Positions 5,473 through 19,503 of a stretch of 24,000 nt of DNA are shown here, piece by piece. The notes under the pieces were generated by a model. The model was not told the DNA's origin, did no database searches, and saw only the letters and a program-made list of their open reading frames with translations. Position numbers and translations under genes: made by a program. The stretch lies in the NCBI RefSeq assembly GCF_002157225.2, contig NZ_CP020038.1, positions 6,010,991 to 6,034,990 of the forward strand, given 5' to 3'. Each line of letters opens with the position of its first letter. Position 1 is the stretch's first letter. This stretch comes from Agarilytica rhodophyticola (GTDB taxonomy: Bacteria; Pseudomonadota; Gammaproteobacteria; Pseudomonadales; Cellvibrionaceae).

Positions 5473-6834
5473 TCAGCCTACGTATACTCGATTTCGACCA
5501 TACTGTTTAGCTTTGTACATCGCAACATCTGCTTTGCGAATAATATCATCAACTGAGCAATCTTTTTCGTTTATGAGATGGATACCTATACTACCACTAA
5601 TCTTGACCAGATGATTAGAAACATCTATAGGTTGGGATATAACACTGAGCATCTTTTCTGCAAGCAACTTACTTTCCAAGATATTATGGGTTAAATCATT
5701 ATCATCTGTAATTAAGATGATGAATTCATCACCACCGATTCTTGCCACAATATCTTCTTGCCTCACTGAAGCCTTAAGTCTACGTGCAGCTTCCTTCAAG
5801 ACTTCATCACCAGCAGCATGTCCATAGGAGTCATTAACTTCTTTGAATTCGTCAAGATCGATAAAAAATATAACGGCAGTTCCTCCATGCCGTTTAAACT
5901 TTGCAATCTGCTCCCGCACCCTTTCAAATAAGTACCGTCTGTTAGGTAAATCTGTCAGCGAGTCTATATGAGCAAACTCGATCATTCTATCCTCATATAG
6001 TTTCGTCTCTGTTATATCATGGGCAGATACAACAGCTCCTAAAACATTCCCCATACCATCAAGACAGGGGGTTAGATTAACATCAAAAAAAATTCGTTTA
6101 CTATTCTCGAAAGCTAACCAGTACTTTGCATTTACCTCATTGCCGGACAAACAAAAGTCTATTTCTTTTCTGACGGTGTTATTAAAGTTCTCTTGTCCTA
6201 ATAATTCCCCAACTTTACTGCCAATAATTTTTTCTCTAGCTGTTTTAAAAAAGTTTTCATAACCTTTGGAAACCATACGATATGTATAGTTTTTATCTAC
6301 AAAAGCCATCATATGGCTTGTGCTTTCGACCATTTTCAAACTTAGTATTGCTTCATGAGTTTTAAAATGCTGATATTCAAGACTTATTCTTTGTGAGAGC
6401 CTATGAAAGAAGTGTTTATCTTCATCATGTTGCTTAATTTTTTCATTATGTAATGTTGCAATATGCCCTAAAGGACGGCCTTGGCTATCAAAGAATAACT
6501 GCGACTGATAGGTGCAAGCATTCTCTAACGGCGTACCAACGAAGAATTCAGTATTGTGAGAAAAGCAATATGTATTTGTTTTTTCATTTATATCGAGATA
6601 CATACTGACCCAGGGAGTATCAGCCAATGATAAATTGAATGGTGCCTCGCATTTATTGTCTTTTCTATAAGCTTTTGCCTTTAATGTATTCGTATCTCGA
6701 GAATAAATAAACAGCACAGCCCATTTATGTCGAGTAAGCAATGACAAAGCTTTAACTGCTTTATTATAGAAATCCTCTTCAGAAGAAGTAAAAGCTAATA
6801 CTTCTAATGCTTTTTTATGATGTGAGGATATCAT
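5473..6834 (-). CDS. diguanylate cyclase with N-terminal sensor (GAF-like), PAS and GGDEF domains
   Basis: GGDEF active site in ARIGGDEFIIL. An RxxD I-site lies five residues upstream (RQED-IVARI-GGDEF). HIDSLTDLPNRR marks the start of the GGDEF domain, and a PAS-like region is present (MMAFVDKNYTYRMVSKGYENFF...HDITE). I prefer the ATG at 6834, preceded by AGGAG with a 5-nt spacer, over the GTG at 6852. Confidence 0.9.
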   Translation of the reverse strand: MISSHHKKALEVLAFTSSEEDFYNKAVKALSLLTRHKWAVLFIYSRDTNTLKAKAYRKDNKCEAPFNLSLADTPWVSMYLDINEKTNTYCFSHNTEFFVGTPLENACTYQSQLFFDSQGRPLGHIATLHNEKIKQHDEDKHFFHRLSQRISLEYQHFKTHEAILSLKMVESTSHMMAFVDKNYTYRMVSKGYENFFKTAREKIIGSKVGELLGQENFNNTVRKEIDFCLSGNEVNAKYWLAFENSKRIFFDVNLTPCLDGMGNVLGAVVSAHDITETKLYEDRMIEFAHIDSLTDLPNRRYLFERVREQIAKFKRHGGTAVIFFIDLDEFKEVNDSYGHAAGDEVLKEAARRLKASVRQEDIVARIGGDEFIILITDDNDLTHNILESKLLAEKMLSVISQPIDVSNHLVKISGSIGIHLINEKDCSVDDIIRKADVAMYKAKQYGRNRVYVG

Positions 6835-7370
6835 GTTTACTCCTAACAACACTTAGAAGCCATTTCATAACTGCTGCACTTACCGATACGGCGTTAAAAA
6901 TACTCTCAAAATGCTCATTTACTTCGTGTAAACTCCGCTTTTTCGGTTATTTTTGCCTTGTCTCGCCTGCGTTCGCGAGTTATGAAACAGCTTCTAGTCA
7001 TTTATTATTCAATACAGCTATACTAAACAGCTAAATAAAAAAAAAACAAGAAATATCATTAAATTTAAACTTAAAAAACTGGTTTAAATGTTAATTGAAC
7101 AAGCAGAGATAGTTAATATATTAAAATTGTTATAAAAAATTATATTTTATAATAAAAGCATAAGAACTAATGACTATTTAAATCTAACACTATTAGGGTT
7201 CATGACATATTTTGTGTAGTCTAAATATATCAATATAGATAGTAAGAAGTACTACAATACGGGAAGCTCGAGCTTTCAACGCTAGAATATAAAGAAAAAG
7301 CTTATTGGTTTTAAGGATTTTAAAGGTTTTAGGATAGATGTATTAGTAGACTAGAAAGGAAATAGTTCTT

Positions 7371-7430: not shown

Positions 7431-8261
7431 TTAATGAGGAGACTTTTTAGAGGCCGCTTTTTTAGGTTCAGCTTTTTCTGGTTCAGCTACAACTTCCAGT
7501 AACTCAACATCGAATAAAAGTACTGAGTTACCAGGAATTTGTGGGCGAGAAACAGCACCGTAGGCAAGTTCAGCAGGAATAAAGAGTTGCCATTTTGCAC
7601 CTTCTTTCATTAGCTGAAGCGCTTCAGTCCAGCCTTTGATCACTTGGCCAACACCAAACGTAGCAGGCTCGCCACGGTCGTAGGAAGAGTCAAACTGAGT
7701 ACCGTCAATTAAAGTCCCTTTGTAATGTACTTTAACACGATCAGTAGCCGCTGGTGACTTACCCTTACCTTCAGTAACGACTTTATATTGCAAACCAGAT
7801 TCAAGTGCAACAATGCCTTCTTTCGCTTTGTTTTCATCTAGGAAAGCAGCACCTTTGGTTTTATTTTCTTCAGCAATTTTAGCCTGCTCTTCTTGTTCAA
7901 TCTTTCGCTTTTCCTGCATCGCAGTATTAACACGCTCACGGAACTCATTCATTACCGTTTGTAAGCTTTCATCATCTAACTTAGAAGAGTCTTCCAAACC
8001 GTCAACATAGGCTCTAGCAAGTGTCTTCTTATCGATAACAATACCTGTACCATCAAGGTTTGCAATATTGCTAGACATGTTTTTGCCAGCAGAAACGCCA
8101 ATAGCATAGGCAACTTTAGTATCAGAGTCTTCGAGGTTGATGGGCTCTTCTTTCTTTGCTTGCTCTGCAGGTTGATTACAAGCAGCAAGTAATGCACCTG
8201 TCGCTATGAGGGTCACAAGCTTGAGAGTCGATTGATGTTTCAAAATAGTTTCCTTATACAT
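7431..8261 (-). CDS. fkpA: FKBP-type peptidyl-prolyl cis-trans isomerase, FkpA/Mip-like, probable lipoprotein
   Basis: 276 aa. Lipobox LLAAC after a signal-like segment, helical Mip/FKBP_N-type N-domain, and C-terminal FKBP domain (VKVHYKGTLIDGTQFDSSYDRGEPATFGVGQVIKGWTEALQLM..GAKW.LFIP..LAYG). The symbol reflects family resemblance, not proven orthology. ORFs 7813..8010(+) and 7976..8197(-) are shadows. Confidence 0.9.
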   Translation of the reverse strand: MYKETILKHQSTLKLVTLIATGALLAACNQPAEQAKKEEPINLEDSDTKVAYAIGVSAGKNMSSNIANLDGTGIVIDKKTLARAYVDGLEDSSKLDDESLQTVMNEFRERVNTAMQEKRKIEQEEQAKIAEENKTKGAAFLDENKAKEGIVALESGLQYKVVTEGKGKSPAATDRVKVHYKGTLIDGTQFDSSYDRGEPATFGVGQVIKGWTEALQLMKEGAKWQLFIPAELAYGAVSRPQIPGNSVLLFDVELLEVVAEPEKAEPKKAASKKSPH

Positions 8262-10358
8262 AGGATTATTAATTGTTAAACCACTATCATGTAGCAGTCA
8301 CGAAAAGTTATAAATTTCAATGGTGTATAATACTTACCGCCACTGTCGGCCTCGACCGCAAATGTAAGGCATATATAACTTATGTGACACCTCCATCATT
8401 CCAAGACAGACAACTGATGTCCCTGCACCTACATTTTCTTCTAACAGCACGTTTAGGTGTTACAACACCCTTATAAATCACATTGTTATCCTGCATTTTT
8501 TACCAGGCTCACAACCGACTTACTTGTCTTTGTATTAGGCTGATATTAGAAGTCATCAGCCTAATTAAGGCTATCCGTACTGTTTAGCGCGTTACCGTAA
8601 CATTTCACACATGACTGGCGCCGATAATCAGTTCACGCTTATCATGCATTCCCTCTATTACCGGGGGTATGCTACACAGGCTAACAATGTGCCATTGTTG
8701 GCTTGTATAATACTTCGTAGAAATACAAAGAGCACATTTTCTTCTTAATATTTGCACATTTCAACGGCATTGTCGCTTTTTTCAACATCAATTTCGCACA
8801 ATTCTAAACGGATCTAGCGTTCAGTAGACCGCTTACAGATACACCACCTTCCCCTCACATTATTCAAACAACAAGGTAAAGATGATTAAAAAAACAAATA
8901 GATTGATTTTTAACCAGAAAATATAAGTGAATATCACGATAAAACTATCACTCAAAAAAATCGCGAAATATAGAGGCCATATTTATATTACTTAAATAAC
9001 GATATTTACCCTGTAAACTGTCTTCTAAACATACAAACGAAAATGTGCGCACCAATATTGCTCATATATTTTCCAATAAAACACCAAGTATCTCAAAGAC
9101 TGTGTGGGGACGAGTGTTTAAGAAATTTGTTTGTTTTTCAAACTAATGTTTGCATGCTAGATTGCGTTCTCTGTGACTCGTTATCCACTTTAATGTAAGT
9201 CATTAAGATTTGAGGACTGATTCAAGATCTCGTCCTGAGTCCATTCTTTTATAAAGCTATATCTAAGGGAAATAGTTTTTTGCAACGAAAAGCTAAGCAA
9301 CAAGTAGCTGAAGAGATACAGGGAGGTTGCTATTGAGAAAGCCAAGAAATTGCCAGTCTTCGCTCATCCACGAGTCAATTTTTGCTTTGGCGTTCTTCTA
9401 TAAGGACAAGTGCCCAAGCCAAGCATTATAGCTAGTCAAAAATCAACATAATATTAATAAACACGTTAATTATTTAACCCCTTTACTGATTAGTAATATG
9501 AGTTACTAACTCCTTTACATTACACTGTAGGTATTATGTAATGACTTGTAATTTAAGTTTTAATCAGGATCAGGTATTTTCATTGTGAAACTCAACAAGT
9601 GAATCTAAGCTGGCACAATTTGCTTCATCATTGAAGCAAAAAAGTACAAATGGCATAGAAATCACATAATTATTTATCACTTAAACTTAGATAGTTTTTA
9701 AGAAAATAAAAAAATACACATTGGAATTTTTATGTAAGTTTTTATTCAATATAGTTTTTTAAAAGCATGTAGAAAGCACCCACTGAGCACTGGAGCTATC
9801 TTAACATACAAATGTAGCACTACAATCGATTGCAGTAAGCTATTGATTGGCTAGGAAAAATAAATCTTATATTTTTATTTTTCATAAGGAAGTTAATTTA
9901 TAAATGGATTATTTAGGTTTTCTACAACTACAGAAATCGAGCCTCAACTCATCTCAAAAAAAAATTACGTCACTTCCATTTAAACGTGACCAACCTTTCC
10001 AGTTGAAAATTTAATTTGTAAAAAATTATTCAATAACATGCAAATTAAAATTTCACAATTATTGAACTTATCAAACTAGTTATATTTCCATTTCAATAAC
10101 TAAGCATATGTGATGACGCATAACTCTCTTTAATTTTGTAAGAACATAAAAAAAACCGTATAGGCAATGAATTAACCCTATAAAAAACTTTTCGTCCCGC
10201 CTAATTTAAACATTCAAAAACCACGTAGGCTAAGTGGGGCCAGTGGCGACTATACCTCTAACGCATCTTAAGAAAATAGGTGCCAAATAAATTAGAAAGC
10301 TCGCCAAAAATGAAATTAGCATCGCTTAGGTAAGCTATTATTTTTTAAGGAATCAGAA

Positions 10359-11831
10359 ATGAAAATTTTCTCAGATACTAATAACTACAAAGCTAATAAT
10401 ATCCAGAGTACCAAAAATCACTATCAGCTACAGTTTTGCCTCACCAAAATATTAGATAGAGCTAACCTCAAGAATGGCGCCATATACTTCTACAAAACAA
10501 ACCAAATTGATGCGCCAAAAAAACCACTAGAACTCTCATTTAACTTTGGAAAAGTTCCTGCTGAACAATGTACTAGCTATCCAATTCTTTACCAAAGAAA
10601 AAAGATTGGGGACTTACTTTTAGATAAAGATCAAGAATCTCAAGAGCAGATCTATAACTTGTCCGAGATAACAAAAAGCATGGCACTATTATTTAAACGT
10701 TTCAAAACTAATGAATGTGCTGACCAAGCAGGTAGTGAATATCCTGTTCTTGTTGGGTTTAGCGAACAATCATTGGCCTTGGAAAGTTTTATAGAAAAAT
10801 CATCCGATAGCATCTCCCCTGTCATTATCGAAGGTGACCACGGAAATGAAATGTCAGCAATTGCAAGAGCAATACACGATAATAGCCACCTGATTAAAAA
10901 GAAATATAGAGAGATAGATTGCTCAACCAGTAGCAATATAGACGAGAGAATAAAGCAAGCATGGAAAGAAAGTATAGGTGGTAGCCTTTATCTACACGAG
11001 ATCAATGAATTATCCCTAGAGTTACAATGTCATTTAATACAGCTATTACATGGCGACGTAAAAATTATAGCATCATCAACTCGACCACTAGAACAGTTGG
11101 TACACGAAGGGAAATTTTATCGTCAATTATATACCGCACTGAATTTTCTCAAAATACATATCCCTCCACTAAGAGAGCGAAAAGAAGACATCCCATATAT
11201 GCTGAATCAACTGATTCTAAAATATAGATGCTACGATAACCAAACATTAACTGAAGAAACAAAGCAAGCTTTGTATAATTTTGATTGGCCTGAAAATTAT
11301 ATGCAACTCGAACGAGTAATGGCTAAGCTGCTAGCCCTATCAAATAGTAATCCTATAGAACTTCACGAACTAAAACTGGTACTACCTACCATATGCTCAA
11401 ATATTAAAAACAACGAAAATCTATATCCTATACCAACAAAAATAGATTTACTAGGTTGCTTAATAAATAAAGATTATCGTGAACTATCAGGGTTACACAT
11501 TGCATTGAGAAGGTCTCTGCAATACCTAGCCGAAAATTACTCTGAAAGCATTACCCTAGAGAAGCTCTCCATGAAAGCGCATGTTAGTTCATCACACTTA
11601 TCCTTTCTATTTAAATATCACTTAAATAAGAGCTTCAAAAAAGTTCTTGCAGAACTTCGAATAGAACAAGCCAAAAGACTATTCGAAAACTACCCTTACA
11701 AACGGGTTACCGACATATGTCTTGAAGTGGGTTTCGGGGATCTCAGTCATTTCGAGAAAATATTCAAACGCTATACAAAAATGACACCAAGAAGCTATAA
11801 AGATAGTTTCCATAGAAAATGTTTCTATTGA
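10359..11831 (+). CDS. transcriptional regulator: GAF-like N-domain + degenerate sigma-54-activator-type AAA+ domain + AraC-type HTH
   Basis: Central region aligns to the bEBP core (LVGFSEQSLALESFIEKSSDSISPVIIEG..., GGSLYLHEINELSLELQCHLIQLL, EGKFYRQLYTALN...IHIPPLRERKEDIPYML, FDWPENYMQL). The C-terminus is a typical AraC/XylS double HTH (ITLEKLSMKAHVSSSHLSFLFKYHLNKSFKKVLAELRIEQAKRLF....VTDICLEVGFGDLSHFEKIFKRYTKMTPRSY). Confidence 0.85.
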   Translation: MKIFSDTNNYKANNIQSTKNHYQLQFCLTKILDRANLKNGAIYFYKTNQIDAPKKPLELSFNFGKVPAEQCTSYPILYQRKKIGDLLLDKDQESQEQIYNLSEITKSMALLFKRFKTNECADQAGSEYPVLVGFSEQSLALESFIEKSSDSISPVIIEGDHGNEMSAIARAIHDNSHLIKKKYREIDCSTSSNIDERIKQAWKESIGGSLYLHEINELSLELQCHLIQLLHGDVKIIASSTRPLEQLVHEGKFYRQLYTALNFLKIHIPPLRERKEDIPYMLNQLILKYRCYDNQTLTEETKQALYNFDWPENYMQLERVMAKLLALSNSNPIELHELKLVLPTICSNIKNNENLYPIPTKIDLLGCLINKDYRELSGLHIALRRSLQYLAENYSESITLEKLSMKAHVSSSHLSFLFKYHLNKSFKKVLAELRIEQAKRLFENYPYKRVTDICLEVGFGDLSHFEKIFKRYTKMTPRSYKDSFHRKCFY

Positions 11832-11929
11832 AAGAAGTTCACTAATTTAACTGATTTATTCATATATTAGTCCAATTAAGCCTAATCAAATGGACTTATT
11901 ATTTACACAAATAAAAAATAGGAAAAGAT

Positions 11930-12148
11930 ATGAGTAACTCAACACCACAAGAGATATGTAATACTTTAATTAAGGAATATGATCCAAAAATTTCAAGTTT
12001 AATGTTAGTTCAAGTGGTAGCTCAGTCACTGGGAAATGCAGCACAAAATGCTACTTTTTCGCAACAGCAGCAAAACATAATAATAAATACGAATACAGCT
12101 ATAAGTGCAAGCCTTCTCCACTCTATAGGTTCTGCATATTCACAATAG
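11930..12148 (+). CDS. Reb-like small protein, short subfamily (B1)
   Basis: 72 aa with AGGA RBS at a 6-nt spacer. Carries the core VAQSLGNAAQNATFSQQQQN shared with the RebB-like paralogs downstream, but lacks their N-terminal VNEQxTDSVTQ motif. Confidence 0.65.
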   Translation: MSNSTPQEICNTLIKEYDPKISSLMLVQVVAQSLGNAAQNATFSQQQQNIIINTNTAISASLLHSIGSAYSQ

Positions 12149-12231
12149 TGATTTCGTTCTTCGCCAAATTTAAAAGGGACACGTAAAACGAAGTCAAATA
12201 GATTTCATTAATATATAACAGAGGTAATAGT

Positions 12232-12492
12232 ATGCCAGTAAATGAACAAGTTACAGATTCAGTCACACAAGTAAACTCAAAAGTTGTTGGCGAAACGCCG
12301 GCTATGACAATGGGCAATATAATTTTATCATCAGGGCAAGCACTAAGCACGTCAGCTTTAAATGTTGCCAGTGGGCTAAACCATGGAAGCATTACAATGC
12401 AAGCCGCAACTATACAAGGTATTAACTCTCTAGTAGCGACTGGCACATCAGTGCTAGGTCGTGTGTCTGAGGAAGTTGTTGAAAAAGGTTAA
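12232..12492 (+). CDS. RebB / 'killing trait' family R-body subunit paralog (A1, divergent centre)
   Basis: 86 aa with GAGG RBS at a 7-nt spacer. N-terminus is MPVNEQVTDSVTQVNSKVVGETPAMTMG, C-terminus ITMQAATIQGINSL...GRVSEEVVEKG. It is paralogous to 12671 and 14311. The antisense ORF 12123..12446 is a shadow. Confidence 0.88.
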   Translation: MPVNEQVTDSVTQVNSKVVGETPAMTMGNIILSSGQALSTSALNVASGLNHGSITMQAATIQGINSLVATGTSVLGRVSEEVVEKG

Positions 12493-12670
12493 TTTTATAA
12501 TGAGAGGAATTAGCTCTACAAAATTACTTTATTTCGGTAGTCTTTTAGAGCATTGATTCGCTTATACTTATTAGTTTGTTAACTAATAATATGATCGAAA
12601 GGGCTAGTACAGCCAATTAAAACGATGTTTTATTACATCATGTTAAACTATTTAAATTAGGATTTTAATT

Positions 12671-12934
12671 ATGCCAGTAAATGAACAAGTTACAGATTCG
12701 GTTACACAAGTAAATACTAAAGTTGTCGGTGAAACACCAGCGATGGCAATGGGTAATTTACTTATGTCAACAAGCCAAGCTTTAGGTAACGCTGCACATA
12801 ACGCTACTGCAGCACAACAACAAGCACAAATAACAATGCAGGCTGCCACAGTACAAGGTGTTAATTCACTAATGTCTATTGGTAGCTCCGTTATCGGGCG
12901 TAGTGCAGAAGGAATTATTGAGAAAGACGGTTAG
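12671..12934 (+). CDS. RebB / 'killing trait' family R-body subunit paralog (A2)
   Basis: 87 aa: MPVNEQVTDSVTQVNTKVVGETPAMAMGNLLMSTSQALGNAAHNATAAQQQAQITMQAATVQGVNSL. This matches my recollection of the PF11747 RebB signature (INSQITDSVTQ...LG..PA.AMG.LYQ...hs.GLAMQNAV..QQ). A strong terminator follows. Confidence 0.9.
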   Translation: MPVNEQVTDSVTQVNTKVVGETPAMAMGNLLMSTSQALGNAAHNATAAQQQAQITMQAATVQGVNSLMSIGSSVIGRSAEGIIEKDG

Positions 12935-12952
12935 TAAGTTGCATTAGATTTT

Positions 12953-12990
12953 AACCTTCATTACGTGAGAAAACGTAATGAAGGTTTTAA
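12953..12990 (+). terminator. rho-independent terminator after reb paralog A2
   Basis: Perfect 13-bp stem aaccttcattacg (12953-12965) / cgtaatgaaggtt (12974-12986), with 8-nt loop tgagaaaa, followed by tt. It lies 19 nt after the stop. Confidence 0.75.
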
Positions 12991-13046
12991 TAGTTCCCTC
13001 CTACTATTAGACTGTTCACTCTTTTATAACTAACGGCAGAAAAGCA

Positions 13047-13358
13047 ATGTCAAATATCAATCAACCCCCAGAGCCAAGCTATACAGCAGTTGCAAATGCG
13101 CAACAATCAATCGCACAATCTACAGCCTTAGCGTTAGCAGATGCTACAGATAATTTAAGAAACCTTAATACATTAAGCACCACAGCCATAGGCGTAGCAT
13201 TATCACAATATATAGAAACAGGTGACGAAAAATTTAGCTCAATTATTGAAGAGGCACAGCAAGTCGTAACTAGAGGCACAGAAAACTTTAGCGCTGTAGG
13301 CGAGAAAATTGCTGTTGTATTACATGAAAAAAATGACTCAGAAAAAACTGAAAAATAA
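13047..13358 (+). CDS. Reb-associated small protein, subfamily C (C1)
   Basis: 103 aa. Clear paralog of 14948..15214 (compare AQQSIAQSTALALADATDNLRNLNTLSTTAIGVALSQYIETGDEKF with AQQAVAQTTAIAVQDAADNLRNISTVTSTAIGVALAQLLATGDEKY). Ala/Thr/Gln-rich helical, with a distant resemblance to the Reb core. The antisense ORF 13079..13375 is a shadow. Confidence 0.75.
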   Translation: MSNINQPPEPSYTAVANAQQSIAQSTALALADATDNLRNLNTLSTTAIGVALSQYIETGDEKFSSIIEEAQQVVTRGTENFSAVGEKIAVVLHEKNDSEKTEK

Positions 13359-13573
13359 AAATTTACCAATTTCATTTACTTTTAAACATTAAAATGATCT
13401 TTCTATGCTCTATAGCATATTGGTATTAAAACAAGCATATAACGTAAACAGAGATAAACTTATCATCATTTTACCCGATTATTTACTATATTCATCGAAT
13501 ATTCTTTGCTTTATAAATAGTACCTTTTAGTTTTTGTTAAGAATAACCCAAAACAAACATGATAGGAAACAAC

Positions 13574-14023
13574 ATGAATGAAACTGAAAGTAAAGGCACA
13601 GAATCCGAGAGCACACCTGAAGAAATAAATCCTTTTTCAAGTCAAGCTACAGGTTTGGTGGAGACAACTTTCGCCGAAACTCTAGGCCTGGCTATGCACA
13701 ACGCAGTGACAAATCAACAAAACTCTCAAATGACAGCTTCGGCTTCTATAACAAATGCTTGTGCTCGTTTATTGCAATCGCCTACTCCTAAAAAACCAAA
13801 GCCAAAATCAAAGGCGCTTAATGATAATGAATCAAGTAAGGAAATTGATTCGGAAGATGGAAAGGATGATAAGAATGCATTATCGAAGAAACCGAAGTCT
13901 TGGTTAAACGTTAAAAATTTTATGAAGCGAAAACCAAAAGATGAAACTCCAGCACCGGATGAATCGGATGATGATCATCTAGAAAGTAAACAACAGTCCA
14001 CGGCACCAAAGAATGAAGAATAA
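13574..14023 (+). CDS. Reb-like short-subfamily core (B2) fused to a long charged low-complexity tail
   Basis: I prefer the ATG at 13574 (AGGA with 7-nt spacer) over 13559. Core is AETLGLAMHNAVTNQQNSQMTASASITNACARLL, followed by about 85 aa rich in K/P/D/E/S (PTPKKPKPKSK...DDKNALSKKPKSW...KRKPKDETPAPDESDDD). Confidence 0.75.
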   Translation: MNETESKGTESESTPEEINPFSSQATGLVETTFAETLGLAMHNAVTNQQNSQMTASASITNACARLLQSPTPKKPKPKSKALNDNESSKEIDSEDGKDDKNALSKKPKSWLNVKNFMKRKPKDETPAPDESDDDHLESKQQSTAPKNEE

Positions 14024-14277
14024 TGACAGACCTACAAAAGATAATGAATGATATAGATGATCATATCAAGTCTATTTCTGATTTGAATAAAAACCAAATG
14101 AATTTAGTTGATGAATTGGTAAGTAAGAATGAAAAGGATATCGAAGCCTATCAAGCTTTTAATGACGCAGATGAGATCAATGAAAAAGTGGCAAGTATGA
14201 TACAAAAAGTCACAGATGAACTTGATTCGGCAGTAAAAGATATTAAGGATAGAATAAAGGTAGGCGACATGAAATAG
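14023..14277 (+). CDS. small acidic coiled-coil protein (hypothetical, reb-cluster associated)
   Basis: 84 aa. Its start overlaps the previous stop (TAATG at 14021-14025), suggesting translational coupling. Heptad-like, D/E/K-rich sequence with no Reb motif. Confidence 0.6.
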   Translation: MTDLQKIMNDIDDHIKSISDLNKNQMNLVDELVSKNEKDIEAYQAFNDADEINEKVASMIQKVTDELDSAVKDIKDRIKVGDMK

Positions 14278-14310
14278 CAAAGAAAGAAAAATAAATTATG
14301 AGGAAAAATA

Positions 14311-14574
14311 ATGGCAACAGTTAATGAGCAGATTACAGATTCAGTTACTCAAGTGAATACAAAAACACTAGGTGATGCACCCGCGATGGCGATGGGCAGC
14401 CTATTTACCGCCACGAGCCAAGCATTATCAAATGCTGGGTTAAACTCCACCACGTCTCAGCAACATGCGGGAATTACCATGCAGGCAGCTACTGTTCAAG
14501 GAGTCAATTCTTTAGGCGCTATAGGAAGTGCTGTATTAGGAAGGGCAGCGGAAGCTGTTGTTGAAAAAGGATAG
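14311..14574 (+). CDS. RebB / 'killing trait' family R-body subunit paralog (A3)
   Basis: 87 aa with GAGGA RBS at a 6-nt spacer. Sequence MATVNEQITDSVTQVNTKTLGDAPAMAMGSLFTATSQALSNAGLNSTTSQQHAGITMQAATVQGVNSL. This is the closest of the three to the canonical RebB N-terminal motif as I remember it. Confidence 0.9.
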   Translation: MATVNEQITDSVTQVNTKTLGDAPAMAMGSLFTATSQALSNAGLNSTTSQQHAGITMQAATVQGVNSLGAIGSAVLGRAAEAVVEKG

Positions 14575-14585
14575 AACTTAGTTCT

Positions 14586-14611
14586 AGGCCTACTTATAGG
14601 TAGGCCTTTTA
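14586..14611 (+). terminator. rho-independent terminator after reb paralog A3
   Basis: Stem aggcctac (14586-14593) / gtaggcct (14600-14607), 6-nt loop, followed by tttt. It lies 12 nt after the stop. Confidence 0.7.
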
Positions 14612-14724
14612 TGAAGCACTAGAATCGTGAAGCTAAAATATTAAATAATTTAGTAATAGTCTTTTAAAACCTCAAATATAGAATATTCTTCATCCCTTCC
14701 TATCGTCAAATATTCGGGTGTATC

Positions 14725-14907
14725 ATGGCACAAGAAGAGACAGAAAAAATAAGTAATATAATAAACGAATTAAGCGAGGCTACTTTAGCCGATACTATCG
14801 GGTTAATGATGGAAAATGCTGTAACCATACAACAAGGGATGCAAACAGTAACTAATGCTTCAATATCTTCATCTTGTGCTTTAATACTGGCGCAAGGTGG
14901 TGGCTAA
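14725..14907 (+). CDS. Reb-like small protein, short subfamily (B3)
   Basis: 60 aa. Core LADTIGLMMENAVTIQQGMQTVTNASISSSCALILAQG is collinear with B2 (FAETLGLAMHNAVTNQQNSQMTASASITNACARLLQS). The RBS is weak. Confidence 0.65.
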   Translation: MAQEETEKISNIINELSEATLADTIGLMMENAVTIQQGMQTVTNASISSSCALILAQGGG

Positions 14908-14947
14908 TATGTATCTCATAACAATCATAGTTTTTCCTAAATAAACC

Positions 14948-15214
14948 ATGTCAGATAACTCAGCAAAACTCAAAGCTCAACAAGCAGTTGCACAAACAAC
15001 GGCAATCGCTGTGCAAGATGCGGCTGATAATTTACGAAATATTAGCACAGTTACCAGTACAGCAATTGGTGTCGCTTTAGCTCAACTACTCGCTACAGGA
15101 GATGAAAAATACATTAAAGTGATAGATGAGGCAGAAAAAGCTTTGGCGAGTGCTGTTGAAAATTTTGCCACCGTAGGTGAAAAGGCGGCAAAAATATTAG
15201 AAGGATTTTCTTAA
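14948..15214 (+). CDS. Reb-associated small protein, subfamily C (C2)
   Basis: 88 aa. Paralog of 13047..13358 along its whole length (also ENFATVGEKAAKIL versus ENFSAVGEKIAVVL). No obvious SD, but the paralogy supports it as a real gene. Confidence 0.75.
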   Translation: MSDNSAKLKAQQAVAQTTAIAVQDAADNLRNISTVTSTAIGVALAQLLATGDEKYIKVIDEAEKALASAVENFATVGEKAAKILEGFS

Positions 15215-15242: not shown

Positions 15243-15869
15243 TTACACATCATATGCAACCACACATAAACGCTCTCCCCCATTTCTCTTGATTTGACTT
15301 AGACGTGCGATACTGGTGCTGCCATTCAAACTTGTGTCAAGAACATACGAGCACCTCTTATTATTATCTAGAGGTTTCAGTAGATTAATATCTTTGTTTT
15401 CAAAATTTCCATTAAATACAAATATAGTATTAATAGACAAAGATGGATTTTCTTTCTTTAGATGTTCAACTCTTATCATATCATTTTCAAATATTGCAAG
15501 CTGTCTATTACTCTTTAATGAAATTGAGTCACTACATCTAACCTCAAAATGTTGAGTCTTTCCATCACACTCAAAACTGAAGTCACTTCTAGACGCACGC
15601 CTTTTTTCCATTACTTTAGTTACACCAGTTTTAGCATGGTAGTGCAAAAAACGGGCACTGCTATTTTCATCATTATCAACTCCAGATGCACAATAATAGT
15701 CTTCGACACTAATTTTATCACTTAATTTTTCACAAGAAAAAAGTAGCGCCATTTCAGTTGTAAACCATTGTTTCCAGGACTTACTAAGATAATCATTTTT
15801 AAAAACATCATAAGCTTTAGAGAAGTTATAGTTCTTTTGAATTATTGAAAGTAATAATTGTGAGTTCAT
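15243..15869 (-). CDS. hypothetical protein (no confident family; weak PD-(D/E)xK-like strand pattern)
   Basis: 208-aa ORF with ATG start, convergent with the reb cluster. It is the last of three co-oriented genes with short gaps. The SDFSFECDGKTQHFEVRC segment is only loosely nuclease-like. ORF 15316..15555(+) is a shadow. Confidence 0.65.
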   Translation of the reverse strand: MNSQLLLSIIQKNYNFSKAYDVFKNDYLSKSWKQWFTTEMALLFSCEKLSDKISVEDYYCASGVDNDENSSARFLHYHAKTGVTKVMEKRRASRSDFSFECDGKTQHFEVRCSDSISLKSNRQLAIFENDMIRVEHLKKENPSLSINTIFVFNGNFENKDINLLKPLDNNKRCSYVLDTSLNGSTSIARLSQIKRNGGERLCVVAYDV

Positions 15870-16902: not shown

Positions 16903-17535
16903 ATGAGCATTAAACTAACGAATGATGATTTGAAAAATATAATGCCAAAATCTTCATTAGATAATATCGAGTTTTACCTACCATCTCTAAATAGGAAAAC
17001 ATCAGAATTTGGCATATTAAGCCCACTTCAATTAGCACATTTTATCGCTCAAATAGCGCATGAAAGCGGTAGTTTTAATTATAAAGTTGAAAACTTGAAT
17101 TATAGCACCGGAGCTCTAAGAGCTGTTTTTGGAAAATACTTCGAAGATGAATCTACCGCAGAAGAATATGCGCGCAAACCGGAGAAGATCGCCAACGTAG
17201 TATACGCAAATCGTATGGGCAATGGTGATACAGCGTCTGGAGACGGATGGCGTTATCGAGGGCGGGGTTTAATTCAGTTAACAGGGCGAGATAACTATGC
17301 TTCTTGCAGTAAAGCAATAGGTGTTGACGTAGAAAAAAACCCAGATTTATTAGCTGGCGATGCAGACGTAATTGTAGCTGCAGCTTGCTGGTTTTGGCAA
17401 TCGAGAGGGCTCAACCAACTAGCGGAGCAAGATGATATTAAGCAGATAACTAAGAAAATAAATGGTGGTTATAATGGTTTAGATGATCGCAAAGAATATT
17501 TGGTAAGAGCAAAGAAAACTTTTCATATAAAATAG
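16903..17535 (+). CDS. glycoside hydrolase family 19 protein (phage/pyocin-type endolysin-like muramidase, 'putative chitinase')
   Basis: 210 aa, no signal peptide. Motifs LAHFIAQIAHESGSFNYKVENLNYS (catalytic Glu pair) and YRGRGLIQLTGRDNY, plus INGGYNGLDDR, are typical of small GH19 lytic enzymes such as the P. aeruginosa pyocin lysis enzyme family. Confidence 0.88.
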   Translation: MSIKLTNDDLKNIMPKSSLDNIEFYLPSLNRKTSEFGILSPLQLAHFIAQIAHESGSFNYKVENLNYSTGALRAVFGKYFEDESTAEEYARKPEKIANVVYANRMGNGDTASGDGWRYRGRGLIQLTGRDNYASCSKAIGVDVEKNPDLLAGDADVIVAAACWFWQSRGLNQLAEQDDIKQITKKINGGYNGLDDRKEYLVRAKKTFHIK

Positions 17536-17550
17536 AAAGAGGATAAAATC

Positions 17551-18390
17551 TTGAAAAACAAAAAAGAGTTCTATGATTTACTGGAATCATTCAATAGCTC
17601 GGATGACATTTTTAAAATATTTCAGAGTATAGAAAACAATATCAATCACTACGCAAAGAAAATATATTCAGATAGAATAAAATCTAAAAAAACTGGTGTT
17701 CCTTTATTAGATTGGTGGATTGCATGTAGCACTCTACTTATTAATAAACAGTTAATCATAAGTGATGTTAACTTTGATGATAAATCTGATAAAGGTAAAG
17801 AATTTATAGAGATATATAACCGTGGCCCCCTCATTGTCGATATCTCTCAATTCTCTATTAATGCTGGCGACCAGGGACAGGATTTTACATTCCCCGACCA
17901 CCTCATTATGTATCCGGGACAAAGGATTAAGGTTCACACATATGTCGGCGAGGGTTTCAATTTCAACAGCAAGCGGCCTATATGGAATAATAAAGGAGAC
18001 GTAGCTTTCCTTTATGATAATCAAGGTGATCTTATTTCATCCTGGGCATATGGTATGGCAGCACAAAATCATATCAAAATTAAATATATAAATTATGACG
18101 GCGAAGAGAAATATACAGAAGGTGATGAGTATGTCGAGATAGAAAATAACAGTACTCATCAAATAGATATATCGGGATGGCAATTGCAGTCAAATAAAAA
18201 TCAAGTTTTCACTTTTCCTAATAACACAAGTATTTCACCATCTGCTGTTATACGTATTTATACGAATTTTGTGGATACCATCACTGGTGGTTTTTCTTTT
18301 AATAGTGCAACCGCCATATGGAATAACAAGGGTGACAAAGGGACACTTATAGATGCTCAAGGCAAAACCGTAGACGAATACTTATATTAG
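17551..18390 (+). CDS. protein with two lamin-tail (LTD) domains and a helical N-terminal region
   Basis: 279 aa, TTG start with AGAGGA at a 7-nt spacer, 15 nt after the GH19 stop. Two repeats carry the LTD signature: GKEFIEIYNRGPLIVDISQFSI....DFTFP....PGQRIKVHT....FNFNSKRPIWNNKGDVAFLYDNQGDLIS, and GDEYVEIENNSTHQIDISGWQLQ....VFTFP....PSAVIRIYT....FSFNSATAIWNNKGDKGTLIDAQGKTVD. Confidence 0.82.
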   Translation: MKNKKEFYDLLESFNSSDDIFKIFQSIENNINHYAKKIYSDRIKSKKTGVPLLDWWIACSTLLINKQLIISDVNFDDKSDKGKEFIEIYNRGPLIVDISQFSINAGDQGQDFTFPDHLIMYPGQRIKVHTYVGEGFNFNSKRPIWNNKGDVAFLYDNQGDLISSWAYGMAAQNHIKIKYINYDGEEKYTEGDEYVEIENNSTHQIDISGWQLQSNKNQVFTFPNNTSISPSAVIRIYTNFVDTITGGFSFNSATAIWNNKGDKGTLIDAQGKTVDEYLY

Positions 18391-18405: not shown

Positions 18406-19503
18406 ATGTTGAAAGATAAAGATGCGGAAAATGGCAATATATCCTTAGATATTATAAAAATTGTTGATGATAGCCAACGATTGATTTCATACATAGCCAA
18501 AAATGGTGATATTGAGCTTGATCCTGATGTCACAAATATTATTGTACAAGCCAAATACAAAATATCAGAAAACCAATGGGGCTCCGAAGATGAAGTAATT
18601 TTTTTATCTAACTATGACAAACTTGCAAAGATAATATACCCGGTTACAGTCGAAAGCTTAAATGCAATCATTCCTACTTATGAAGGAAAAAGAAGGAAAA
18701 AAACTAATGCTGAAAAGGCTGTATCCTGGTATAGGAGAAATACAATATTCGCTTTAATATTTCTTTTGACTATACAAGCATACTGGCTTTTCGGTCACCA
18801 GATAAGAGCAAATTTAATAGAAAATATATCTGAGAGGAAAATTATAAGTGAAGAAATAGAAGATTTATCTCCAGGTGACAAAAAACTAAAAAGACTAAAA
18901 AGTGATCTCAACTTACAAAACCAAGAGTTTGATGCTAATAATAGTTTACTGAATAGGTGGAATAAAGTGTGGTCGTTCGGTGCTGAATTCAAAGGTACGA
19001 TGCCAAAATATTTTCAAACAGTCTATGAAGGTAAGAAATCTGAGATAGAAAGCTATGCAGATGCTAATAACCAAGCATTAGTTGAATTAGAACAGTCTCA
19101 TATTTTACATACAGAAAGGATTAAGTTATTTGAAAACATTCTCTCATCAGGTTTTGTTTTAGATACATTTCAAGGATATTTTTTACCACTACTTTATGGT
19201 TTACTAGGAGCATTTATTTTTATTTTGCGAACACTCATGATGGAAATAAAATCTATGACATACACAATGAATTCAGAAATAAAATTTCGCCTTCGTTTAA
19301 CACTGGGAGCTCTGGGTGGAATGATTATAGGATGGTTTCTAAAGCCCGATAACACAGATGCTCTTGCATCTTTGTCTCCTATGGCTCTTGCCTTCTTAAT
19401 GGGCTATAACGTAGATGTATTATTTTCAATAATGGATCGAATTGTTGATAACATAAGTCAGAGTATTAACAAAAATGAAAGTAATCTACATCAAAGCAAG
19501 TAA
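18406..19503 (+). CDS. membrane protein: soluble N-domain, TM1, long coiled-coil, three C-terminal TM helices (hypothetical)
   Basis: 365 aa, 15 nt after the LTD gene stop. Hydrophobic helices lie at about residues 113-130 (IFALIFLLTIQAYWLFG), 256-276 (FLPLLYGLLGAFIFILRTL), 297-312 (LTLGALGGMIIGWFL) and 322-342 (LSPMALAFLMGYNVDVLFSIM). ORF 18795..18992(-) is a shadow. Confidence 0.8.
   Translation: MLKDKDAENGNISLDIIKIVDDSQRLISYIAKNGDIELDPDVTNIIVQAKYKISENQWGSEDEVIFLSNYDKLAKIIYPVTVESLNAIIPTYEGKRRKKTNAEKAVSWYRRNTIFALIFLLTIQAYWLFGHQIRANLIENISERKIISEEIEDLSPGDKKLKRLKSDLNLQNQEFDANNSLLNRWNKVWSFGAEFKGTMPKYFQTVYEGKKSEIESYADANNQALVELEQSHILHTERIKLFENILSSGFVLDTFQGYFLPLLYGLLGAFIFILRTLMMEIKSMTYTMNSEIKFRLRLTLGALGGMIIGWFLKPDNTDALASLSPMALAFLMGYNVDVLFSIMDRIVDNISQSINKNESNLHQSK

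Follow-up and report, generated by a model that had tools for sequence, protein, structure and literature searches.

A conserved family of degenerate enhancer-binding proteins with an AraC-type DNA-binding domain, linked to R-body (reb) genes

Introduction

R-bodies are pH-triggered protein pistons that have been implicated in the killing of eukaryotic cells by Caedibacter, Pseudomonas aeruginosa and Azorhizobium caulinodans. To our knowledge, regulators of R-body production are known only for loci of the so-called Group 2. In the present study we describe a candidate regulator of reb genes encoded in a 24,000-nucleotide stretch of the Agarilytica rhodophyticola genome (contig NZ_CP020038.1, positions 6,010,991 to 6,034,990 of the forward strand; hereafter the window, to which all coordinates refer). 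Its gene, at 10359-11831 on the plus strand, lies directly upstream of a cluster of reb genes, and the encoded protein joins a domain of the type found in activators of sigma-54 RNA polymerase to a DNA-binding domain of the AraC type.

Two R-body regulatory systems have been described, RcgA/FecI2 and PraR/RebR, and the loci of both belong to the Group 2 synteny (PMC3583457). Under the known R-body regulators, expression occurs stochastically or in a subpopulation only (PMC8322103, PMC5527310), comprising 0.26% of cells of P. aeruginosa PA14 (PMC8322103) and up to 10% of cells of an A. caulinodans praR mutant (PMC5527310). A different synteny, Group 1, is defined by the gene set HP1.1 to HP1.4, and no regulator was mentioned for it (Raymann et al. 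2013, PMC3583457); co-localised regulators were expressly left out of consideration in a 2026 survey of Reb proteins (PMC13430693). The reb cluster of Vibrio coralliilyticus RE22, which has the same gene order as the cluster in the window, ends in a gene for a 403-amino-acid (aa) "AraC transcriptional reg. (AtoC domain)" protein that its authors did not discuss (PMC7457808, Table 2). This table row was the only trace of an AraC fusion to an enhancer-binding protein, or of a Group 1 reb regulator, that we found in the literature; an earlier passing mention in reviews of enhancer-binding protein architecture is possible.

On the protein side, homologues of bacterial enhancer-binding proteins (bEBPs, or EBPs) that lack the GAFTGA motif and act with sigma-70 form a recognised small class, comprising TyrR, PhhR, DhaR, HupR, HsfA, NtrX and VpsR (PMC6158489, PMC3162934). 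VpsR is a class II activator that binds just upstream of the -35 element (PMC6158489). The explanation that we favour, and consider fairly likely, is that the regulator in the window belongs to a conserved family of sigma-54-independent, probably autoactivating class II AraC-type activators of Group 1 reb loci.

Domain architecture and loss of the sigma-54 and ATPase determinants

The regulator gene begins with an ATG at 10359 and its stop codon ends at 11831 (open reading frame list); a ribosome-binding site, AAGGA, lies 7 nucleotides (nt) before the start codon. From the N- to the C-terminus, the 490-aa product consists of a small GAF-like domain, an AAA+ domain of the sigma-54-activator type, a lid and a full AraC double helix-turn-helix (HTH). 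The best AAA+ match was to the variant Pfam model Sigma54_activ_2 (PF14532; residues 132-271, E = 5e-18); the classical model Sigma54_activat (PF00158) was matched only as two separate pieces (E = 4e-13), and AAA_lid_14 covers residues 272-340. At the C-terminus, HTH_18 (PF12833) matches residues 405-481 (E = 1e-18) and HTH_AraC (PF00165) matches in two stretches (E = 9e-18), while the sequence matches of this region in the PDB are the DNA-binding domains of AraC, RamA and YesN. Through its DNA-binding domain the regulator is a bona fide member of the AraC/XylS family. Pfam found no Fis-type HTH (PF02954/HTH_8) in the protein, although PF02954 is present in the canonical bEBPs returned by our homologue search (P0091 onward), and no Crp-Fnr or ECF sigma domain. 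With NCBIfam, the regulator fell under the cut-off for every bEBP equivalog, the top match being DhaR (NF008485; E = 7.5e-29, 100.5 bits against a cut-off of 551).

Catalytic motifs were read from an alignment of the regulator to NtrC1 structures and ten canonical bEBPs. In the AAA+ alpha/beta subdomain (residues 125-270; 10731-11168), the Walker A motif GESGxGKE is represented by GDHGNEMS (residues 159-166; 10833-10856), with Met in place of the lysine and Glu in place of the last P-loop glycine, and the Walker B segment GGSLYLHEI (residues 207-215; 10977-11003) reads LYLHE, the D being replaced by H and the E retained. The GAFTGA, or L1, loop is deleted: 18 residues separate YREIDC from GGSLYLHE, compared with about 35 in canonical bEBPs, and the ~15 missing residues (15 alignment columns) fall precisely at the position of ESELFGHEKGAFTGA. 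Also deleted is the FxRVGG hairpin, or insertion, that precedes sensor I (14-19 alignment columns). Sensor I has T for N, both canonical arginines of the arginine-finger region are replaced (FYRQLYTAL, residues 253-261; 11115-11141), the finger itself by A, and in the lid subdomain (residues 271-345; 11169-11393) the sensor II stretch WPENYMQLERV (11286-11318) has M for R (WPENYMQL). A first-pass annotation of the window, made from the sequence alone, had described a bEBP-type central domain with a lysine-free Walker A, a Walker B changed from DE to HE, no xxFxRVGG segment before the sensor I strand and an AraC double HTH in place of the Fis type, all of which the profile searches and alignments bear out. 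It had also reported the deletion of the GAFTGA loop, which stands, and a spacing of ~24 against ~41 residues, which the values given above replace. The alignments revealed no intact P-loop or GAFTGA that had been misaligned by eye.

An AlphaFold model based on a 71-sequence family alignment (predicted local distance difference test, pLDDT, 90) contains all five parallel strands of the AAA+ core. In Foldseek it matched the AAA+ domains of NtrC1, FleQ, ZraR, FlrC and PspF with a template-modelling (TM) score of about 0.75 and a root-mean-square deviation of 2.5-3 Å. According to this model the AAA+ fold is preserved and the catalytic chemistry is lost, and the motif replacements make it probable that ATPase activity has gone.

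The N-terminal domain (residues ~15-124; 10401-10730) was predicted by AlphaFold2 to form a helix, four antiparallel strands and a long helix (residues 1-130 modelled apart, pLDDT 76). It includes a conserved YPILYQRKxIGxL hairpin, and Y78 and R114 are invariant. The top 50 Foldseek matches of this model in the PDB were all GAF domains, which usually have five to six strands as against the four predicted here, and the best of them, the GAF domain of the bEBP Nlh1 (4g3k), was weak (E = 0.013, TM 0.53). Pfam returned nothing significant for this domain in 26 family members, GAF being matched in one of the 26 at E = 0.08; of the GAF assignment raised in the first-pass annotation, the structural part thus found weak support and the profile part none. 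The domain may be GAF-like and could serve as a small sensor or dimerisation module that binds a ligand or a partner.

A conserved family under purifying selection

A search of 5.8 billion proteins identified about 90 clusters that share the Pfam architecture of the regulator, from marine gammaproteobacteria and beyond, whose annotation goes no further than "AraC family" or "sigma 54-interacting" regulator. With HMMER, run exhaustively against 1.84 billion representatives, 187 clusters gave full-length matches at E <= 1e-30 (family clusters being defined at 50% identity). Among 219 aligned family members, none has a GAFTGA-like motif, 14 have an intact Walker A GK (GxxGxGK), a single one has the Walker B DE, nine have the arginine-finger R and 11 the sensor II R. 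In 174 of the 219, the last P-loop glycine (Walker A column 6) is replaced by Glu, giving GxxGxEKL. Loss of the Walker A lysine and deletion of the pre-sensor-I insertion are peculiar to the immediate clade of the query (the query and P0001-P0005). To judge from these alignments, the degenerate ATPase is ancestral to the whole family and not a quirk of one gene, which corrects the picture drawn in the first-pass annotation. Because an acidic residue is conserved in the former phosphate-binding loop, a new structural role is suggested instead of random decay, perhaps self-occupation of the nucleotide site by the conserved Glu.

Twelve columns of the family alignment are invariant, namely R274, W310 and ten in or just before the AraC double HTH region (11499-11828, which holds nine of the 12), and D277 of the lid is nearly so. 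Between the regulator and its 77%-identical orthologue (locus L081), the rate of synonymous substitution (dS) is saturated, and that of non-synonymous substitution (dN) is 0.05 in the AraC domain, 0.10 in the lid, 0.15 in the N-terminal domain and 0.24 in the AAA+ core. Since dS is saturated while dN is only 0.05-0.24 in every domain, the gene is not decaying, and this comparison indicates purifying selection on all domains of the regulator.

Linkage to reb genes

Nine small open reading frames (ORFs) lie directly downstream of the regulator gene (11930-15214, plus strand). Six exceed the RebB Pfam threshold (11930-12148, 12232-12492, 12671-12934, 13559-14023, 14311-14574 and 14725-14907), and the remaining three (13047-13358, 14023-14277 and 14948-15214) are partner genes without a Pfam match whose place in the gene order is as in L081, L082 and L083. 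The whole gene order of the window is common to the closest loci, L081, L001 (61% identity), and L082 and L083 (57%). Gene sizes of 365, 103, 154 and 60-72 aa fit HP1.1 to HP1.4, and by size and position the locus fits the Group 1 type.

Scanning one genome per species yielded 327 relatives of the regulator, and the locus counts given below cover the best 80. These include Alteromonadaceae, Colwellia, Pseudoalteromonas, Marinomonas and Photobacterium, Vibrio coralliilyticus, V. nigripulchritudo and V. penaeicida, Xanthomonas, Stenotrophomonas maltophilia, Albitalea and Pelomonas, as well as Acidobacteria, Myxococcota and SAR324. Using a hidden Markov model (HMM) built from the window's own Reb proteins, RebB-like ORFs were found within 10 kb of the regulator in 68 of the 80 loci; among the 12 without RebB nearby, the flanks of several are truncated, and one is the second of two paralogues in a single genome. 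The linkage also appeared in the reverse direction. A tblastn search of plasmids with RebB located reb loci in Azospirillum brasilense, Eleftheria terrae and Ralstonia syzygii, and each of the three has a family member no more than about 6 kb away (HMM E = 1e-113 to 1e-130); the two of these regulators that are annotated have the same Pfam architecture. The search for the same fusion beside reb genes elsewhere, proposed in the first-pass annotation, was therefore positive in both directions.

Marinomonas sp. MED121 carries two paralogues (L020 and L058) 18 kb apart on the same contig. Six reb genes directly follow one of them, and none lies within 10 kb of the other, a pairing that hints at additional targets or at a regulatory pair.

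The linkage spans alpha-, beta- and gammaproteobacteria, Acidobacteria, Myxococcota and SAR324, and bears directly on the view that the gene is a decaying bEBP pseudogene or an accidental fusion unrelated to the reb genes. The loss of all catalytic motifs could indeed resemble decay, but an intact frame, the same architecture in at least 187 diverged clusters, purifying selection in every domain and a confidently predicted fold, together with this taxonomic breadth, effectively refute that view.

Promoters and putative operators

No -24/-12 promoter with two or fewer mismatches is present on the plus strand in any reb intergenic region, in agreement with the first-pass annotation, which had found none correctly spaced upstream of the reb genes. 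Across the whole window, a scan for TGGCAC-N5-TTGCW with up to three mismatches returned loose sigma-54 matches at the chance level (103 versus 90 ± 9). One candidate, TGGCACAATTTGC at 9611-9623, ~750 nt before the regulator gene, has a GG-to-GC spacing of 8 instead of 10 and is unlikely to function. Having no GAFTGA, no ATPase motifs, no -24/-12 targets and no Fis-type HTH, the regulator is not a bEBP in the functional sense.

A different element was apparent when the spacer between the regulator gene and the first reb gene (reb1) was aligned over the four close loci, which share conserved blocks, and compared with distant loci, which show one common layout: a box followed after an 18-nt spacer by a -10-like hexamer. 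Box and hexamer are CCAATTA and TATTAT in the window, CCGATTA and TACTAT in L009, CCGATTA and TAATAT in the P. phenolica group, CCGATTA and TAAACT in P. luteoviolacea, CCAAGTT and TAATAT in Vibrio, CCAATTY and TAYTGT in Xanthomonas, CCAATCC and TACTCT in S. maltophilia, and CCAAGTG and TAGCAT in Albitalea. We searched 600 nt around the first reb start, on the reb strand, for CC[AGT]A[TG][TC]-N19-TAnnnT (a CCNAKY box). The pattern occurred in 50 of the 68 reb-linked loci compared with 1.56 expected from shuffles, and in none of the 68 on the opposite strand. It was also found in Azospirillum and Eleftheria, and has been kept in low-GC marine genomes as well as in the high-GC genomes of Xanthomonadales and Burkholderiales.

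Positions outside the search pattern were examined in 24 non-redundant instances anchored on the box. Relative to the box, T is found at -9 in 23 of 24, C at -11 in 18 and G at -10 in 14, TT occupies -5/-4 (19 and 18 of 24), and more CC/TT pairs occur near -21/-15 and -32/-25. The boxes thus recur about one helical turn apart (~10.5-bp periodicity) and span roughly -70 to -31, counted from the inferred start site. Vibrio, Xanthomonas, Stenotrophomonas, Eleftheria and marine gammaproteobacteria have a composite CCGTCGnTTnnnCCAAKTY in common, the window's own operator pattern being yCAT-N3-TT-N3-CCnATwA. The promoters lack a usable -35 hexamer of their own (for example CCAATTAAG). At class II AraC/XylS-type sites, a monomer reads two major grooves, sites are arranged in tandem and the proximal one overlaps the -35 element; on sequence grounds, the reb promoter layout looks like a site of this kind.

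The full element occurs three times in the window: before reb1, before the 154-aa Reb-like gene and, more weakly, before the regulator gene. The putative regulator-dependent promoter of the reb1 operon (11860-11902, plus strand), whose layout is common to the four close and the distant loci, comprises the operator TCATATATTAGTCCAATTA at 11860-11878, an 18-nt spacer and the -10 element TATTAT at 11897-11902, with further CYRATT boxes at 11842 and 11852. A second putative promoter of this type (13463-13505, plus strand), upstream of the 154-aa Reb-like gene, comprises the operator TCATCATTTTACCCGATTA at 13463-13481, the box of which is conserved in L081 and L082, and a -10 element TATTCT at 13500-13505. 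These two fall within two of the three reb promoter regions that the first-pass annotation had put forward (11832-11929 and 13359-13573). Its third, 12493-12670, contains only a partial box and was rejected as a third regulated promoter, having neither a TAnnnT at the right spacing nor upstream phased positions. That box, CCAATTA at 12612-12618 before the third reb gene, is preceded by a small conserved GGCT...AGCC hairpin, is also present in L081 and could mark a weak or different promoter.

The third copy, not anticipated by the first-pass annotation, suggests a probable autoregulated promoter upstream of the regulator gene (10165-10207, plus strand), comprising the operator CAATGAATTAACCCTATAA at 10165-10183, an 18-nt spacer and a -10-like TAATTT at 10202-10207, in a block that is conserved in L081, L082 and L001. 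Of the 80 loci, 30 have such an element before the regulator gene, compared with 1.7 expected and none on the opposite strand. All 30 belong to a marine Alteromonadales/Oceanospirillales clade, and seven of them have no reb genes nearby. Because the element travels with the regulator gene, the box is probably the regulator's own operator, and the gene would be autoregulated in the marine clade.

An alternative is that CCNAKY-N19-TAnnnT is the promoter of a sigma factor encoded elsewhere, and that the AraC-EBP protein binds other sites or acts indirectly. The fixed distance from box to -10 does look like a two-block sigma promoter, in which an alternative sigma factor would read the box as its -35 instead of the regulator reading it as an operator, and GCCGATAA-like boxes recall the sigma-28 -10 element. 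A sigma-28 reading was nevertheless rejected, as no TAAA -35 is seen at the right spacing. The box also changes in step with the regulator from clade to clade (CCGATTA, CCAAGTT, CCAATYY), the phased boxes continue ~35 bp upstream of the -35, beyond what a sigma factor would read, and the element accompanies the regulator gene even where reb genes are absent. Group 2 reb loci do depend on the extracytoplasmic function (ECF) sigma factor FecI2 (PMC8322103), but neither the window nor its syntenic loci contain a sigma gene. We regard the alternative sigma factor as improbable.

Proposed mode of action

Family conservation, reb linkage and promoter layout together support the first-pass proposal that a bEBP scaffold has been turned to a new use, as a sigma-54-independent AraC-type regulator of R-body genes. 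In the scheme that we favour, a GAF-AAA+-HTH enhancer-binding protein would have lost the GAFTGA loop and essentially every residue for ATP binding and hydrolysis, and would have exchanged its Fis-type HTH for an AraC/XylS double HTH. The AraC domain would read the helically phased boxes, of which the promoter-proximal one lies at -35, 18 nt upstream of a sigma-70-type -10 (TAnnnT), and from this class II position the regulator would recruit or activate sigma-70 RNA polymerase at 11860-11902 and 13463-13505. The pseudo-AAA+ core and lid, no longer a motor, may provide a scaffold for oligomerisation that relays signals between the GAF-like sensor and the DNA-binding heads. In the clade of the query, the regulator would also activate its own promoter at 10165-10207, providing positive feedback suited to the all-or-none, subpopulation-restricted expression of a costly or lethal structure.

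Several points weigh against this scheme. That the regulator binds DNA, in which direction it acts and with which sigma factor is inferred from sequence; for the sigma factor the basis is a -10-like hexamer that keeps a constant distance from the box in 50 of 68 loci, the strict pattern being absent from the other 18. The autoregulatory site of the window is a weaker match (box CCTATAA, -10 TAATTT), and no copy of the element was found upstream of the regulator gene in Xanthomonadales or Vibrio, so autoregulation may be limited to one clade. The assignment of the GAF-like domain is itself weak, at E of about 0.01. The position of the box and the state of the P-loop raise two further objections, each of which leads to a reading of its own.

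A box that overlaps the -35 is also where a repressor would sit, and the regulator might cover it and silence the costly reb genes until the GAF-like domain senses a signal; the copy at the regulator's own promoter is compatible with either an activator or a repressor. AraC-family proteins are overwhelmingly activators, and this general knowledge speaks against repression. So does the lack of a recognisable -35 hexamer in the reb promoters, which is typical of activator-dependent promoters, and the reach of the phased direct repeats to about -70, as at class II AraC/XylS promoters. Precedents for repression are the dominant repression of R-body genes by PraR in A. caulinodans (PMC5527310) and the ability of the atypical EBPs TyrR and NtrX to repress (PMC6158489, PMC3162934). 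On balance a repressor seems unlikely to us, if less so than an alternative sigma factor.

As to the P-loop, the Walker A lysine has been kept in 54 of 91 family members in one alignment and in 132 of 219 in a larger one, and together with the 14 of 219 that keep GxxGxGK this raises the prospect that some members may bind nucleotide or another ligand residually. The AAA+ domain could accordingly still be nucleotide-dependent through a deviant P-loop, or could bind a nucleotide-like ligand such as cyclic di-GMP (c-di-GMP), which FleQ and VpsR bind on this domain, the ligand and not the N-terminal domain then being the real signal. The query, however, has Met for the lysine and Glu for the last P-loop glycine, and carries substitutions at the Walker B D, at sensor I, at the arginine finger and at sensor II, while the Arg/Asn that follows Walker A in FleQ is not conserved in the family consensus KLAVAxAIH. 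A PAS-GGDEF gene at 5473-6852 (minus strand), 3.5 kb upstream of the regulator, would suit a c-di-GMP signal, but it is not syntenic in L081 or L082 and any link to the regulator is speculation. We hold a ligand-driven AAA+ domain to be very improbable.

A bolder form of the favoured explanation would make the pseudo-AAA+ domain a nucleotide-independent switch of cooperative assembly, in which the P-loop Glu fills the phosphate site and locks the fold, and in which signal-dependent oligomerisation on phased boxes, together with autoactivation, produces a bistable, all-or-none R-body decision. Group 1 reb loci across the alpha-, beta- and gammaproteobacteria, those of S. maltophilia, Xanthomonas and V. 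coralliilyticus among them, would then have this family as their master switch. This remains a tentative idea that we would not expect to hold in full.

Other sites and neighbouring genes

Three hairpins occur among the reb genes. A strong one followed by a U-tract (UUUUAAU) lies after the third reb gene at 12948-12991 (plus strand; found by repeat search, -21.6 kcal/mol, z = -6.9), and a GC-rich one followed by UUUUAU lies after the reb gene at 14311-14574 (14586-14607, plus strand; -14.4 kcal/mol); both are conserved in L081. The former is likely a terminator or attenuator and the latter likely an intrinsic terminator. With the hairpin at 12505-12560 (-15.1 kcal/mol, z = -4.4), they probably serve as terminators or attenuators that divide the cluster into units and set Reb stoichiometry.

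The sequence CTAATTTAA is present in three exact copies, all in intergenic DNA of the reb region. It was rejected as an operator, not being conserved in L081 at the reb1 site, and we reinterpret it as in part the -10 region of the regulator's own promoter. Six further matches with one mismatch to YCATN3TTN3CCNATWA begin at 998, 2900, 3964, 8642, 14296 (minus strand) and 23351, where 0.8 would be expected for all matches. Three of them (998, 2900 and 3964) fall within ORFs and two (8642 and 23351) fall between genes, with no -10 at the right spacing; all five, like the one at 14296, are probably due to chance, and the excess may reflect AT-rich composition.

The ~2.1 kb between an FKBP/Mip-like gene (7431-8261, minus strand) and the regulator gene (8262-10358) contain no ORF that reaches 100 aa. 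Relatives have kept just the final ~200 nt, which correspond to the putative autoregulated promoter and a long 5' untranslated region of ~145 nt. On its other side, the reb cluster is flanked by a gene for a 208-aa protein without a Pfam match (15243-15869, minus strand), kept in L081, L082 and L083. Three more genes nearby are kept in L081: a GH19 lysozyme/chitinase-like gene (16903-17535), which could have a lysis or release function for R-bodies, a gene for a lamin-tail-domain protein (17551-18390) and one for a 365-aa protein without a Pfam match (18406-19503), the size of which fits HP1.1 of Raymann and colleagues.

Comparison with known systems

The regulator would share with RcgA and FecI2 of P. 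aeruginosa PA14, and with PraR and RebR of A. caulinodans, the feature of being a reb-directed factor encoded at the locus itself. The proteins are unrelated to it, RebR being of the Crp-Fnr type and FecI2 an ECF sigma factor. The AraC-headed family is probably, as far as gene linkage and promoter layout can tell, the long-missing switch of reb genes at ordinary sigma-70-type promoters. Loci that had no known regulator until now, in Xanthomonas, S. maltophilia, V. coralliilyticus and V. nigripulchritudo, Azospirillum, Ralstonia syzygii and many marine bacteria, thereby gain a candidate regulator, a candidate operator and a candidate promoter, each with coordinates, and the timing and cell choice of R-body production become directly testable.

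Among AraC/XylS class II activators (XylS, RhaS and the MarA/SoxS type), the regulator resembles the others in its C-terminal double HTH of ~100 aa and in a putative operator of phased direct repeats whose proximal box overlaps the -35. It differs from them in the N-terminal partner, which is a GAF-like and pseudo-AAA+ moiety of ~380 aa in place of a cupin or arabinose-binding domain. Compared with the GAF-containing bEBPs NifA, Nlh1, FhlA and NorR, it has the same order of sensor (here GAF-like), AAA+, lid and DNA-binding domain, with an AAA+ TM score of about 0.75, but lacks GAFTGA, Walker A and B, the arginine finger, the Fis HTH and sigma-54 target promoters.

DhaR offers a closer parallel, since E. 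coli DhaR (L084) also has FSRQLY.AL in place of the arginine-finger sequence FRxDLYYRL, a GAF-type sensor and no sensor II arginine. The regulator is 28% identical to DhaR over 233 aa. Specific descent from DhaR was rejected, as a profile of the family's AAA+ domain gave DhaR 132 bits compared with 153-185 for canonical bEBPs, and the common FSRQLY.AL could reflect either convergence or shared ancestry among atypical EBPs.

The closest fit overall is with the atypical EBPs (VpsR, TyrR/PhhR, DhaR, HupR, HsfA and NtrX), which likewise combine an EBP-type AAA+ domain lacking the GAFTGA contact with promoters that have no -24/-12 element, and in which the Walker motifs are often degenerate. Three features set the present family apart. 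It has an AraC double HTH, whereas all described members keep the Fis type; none of the catalytic residues is left and a conserved Glu stands in for the last P-loop glycine, whereas most described members keep at least nucleotide binding; and the reb genes would be a new target. The regulator is best seen as an atypical EBP with an AraC head and not something categorically new. It extends that class to proteins whose DNA-binding domain has been swapped and whose ATPase appears completely and anciently dead yet under selection, and the family offers a natural test of what an AAA+ scaffold is used for without nucleotide.

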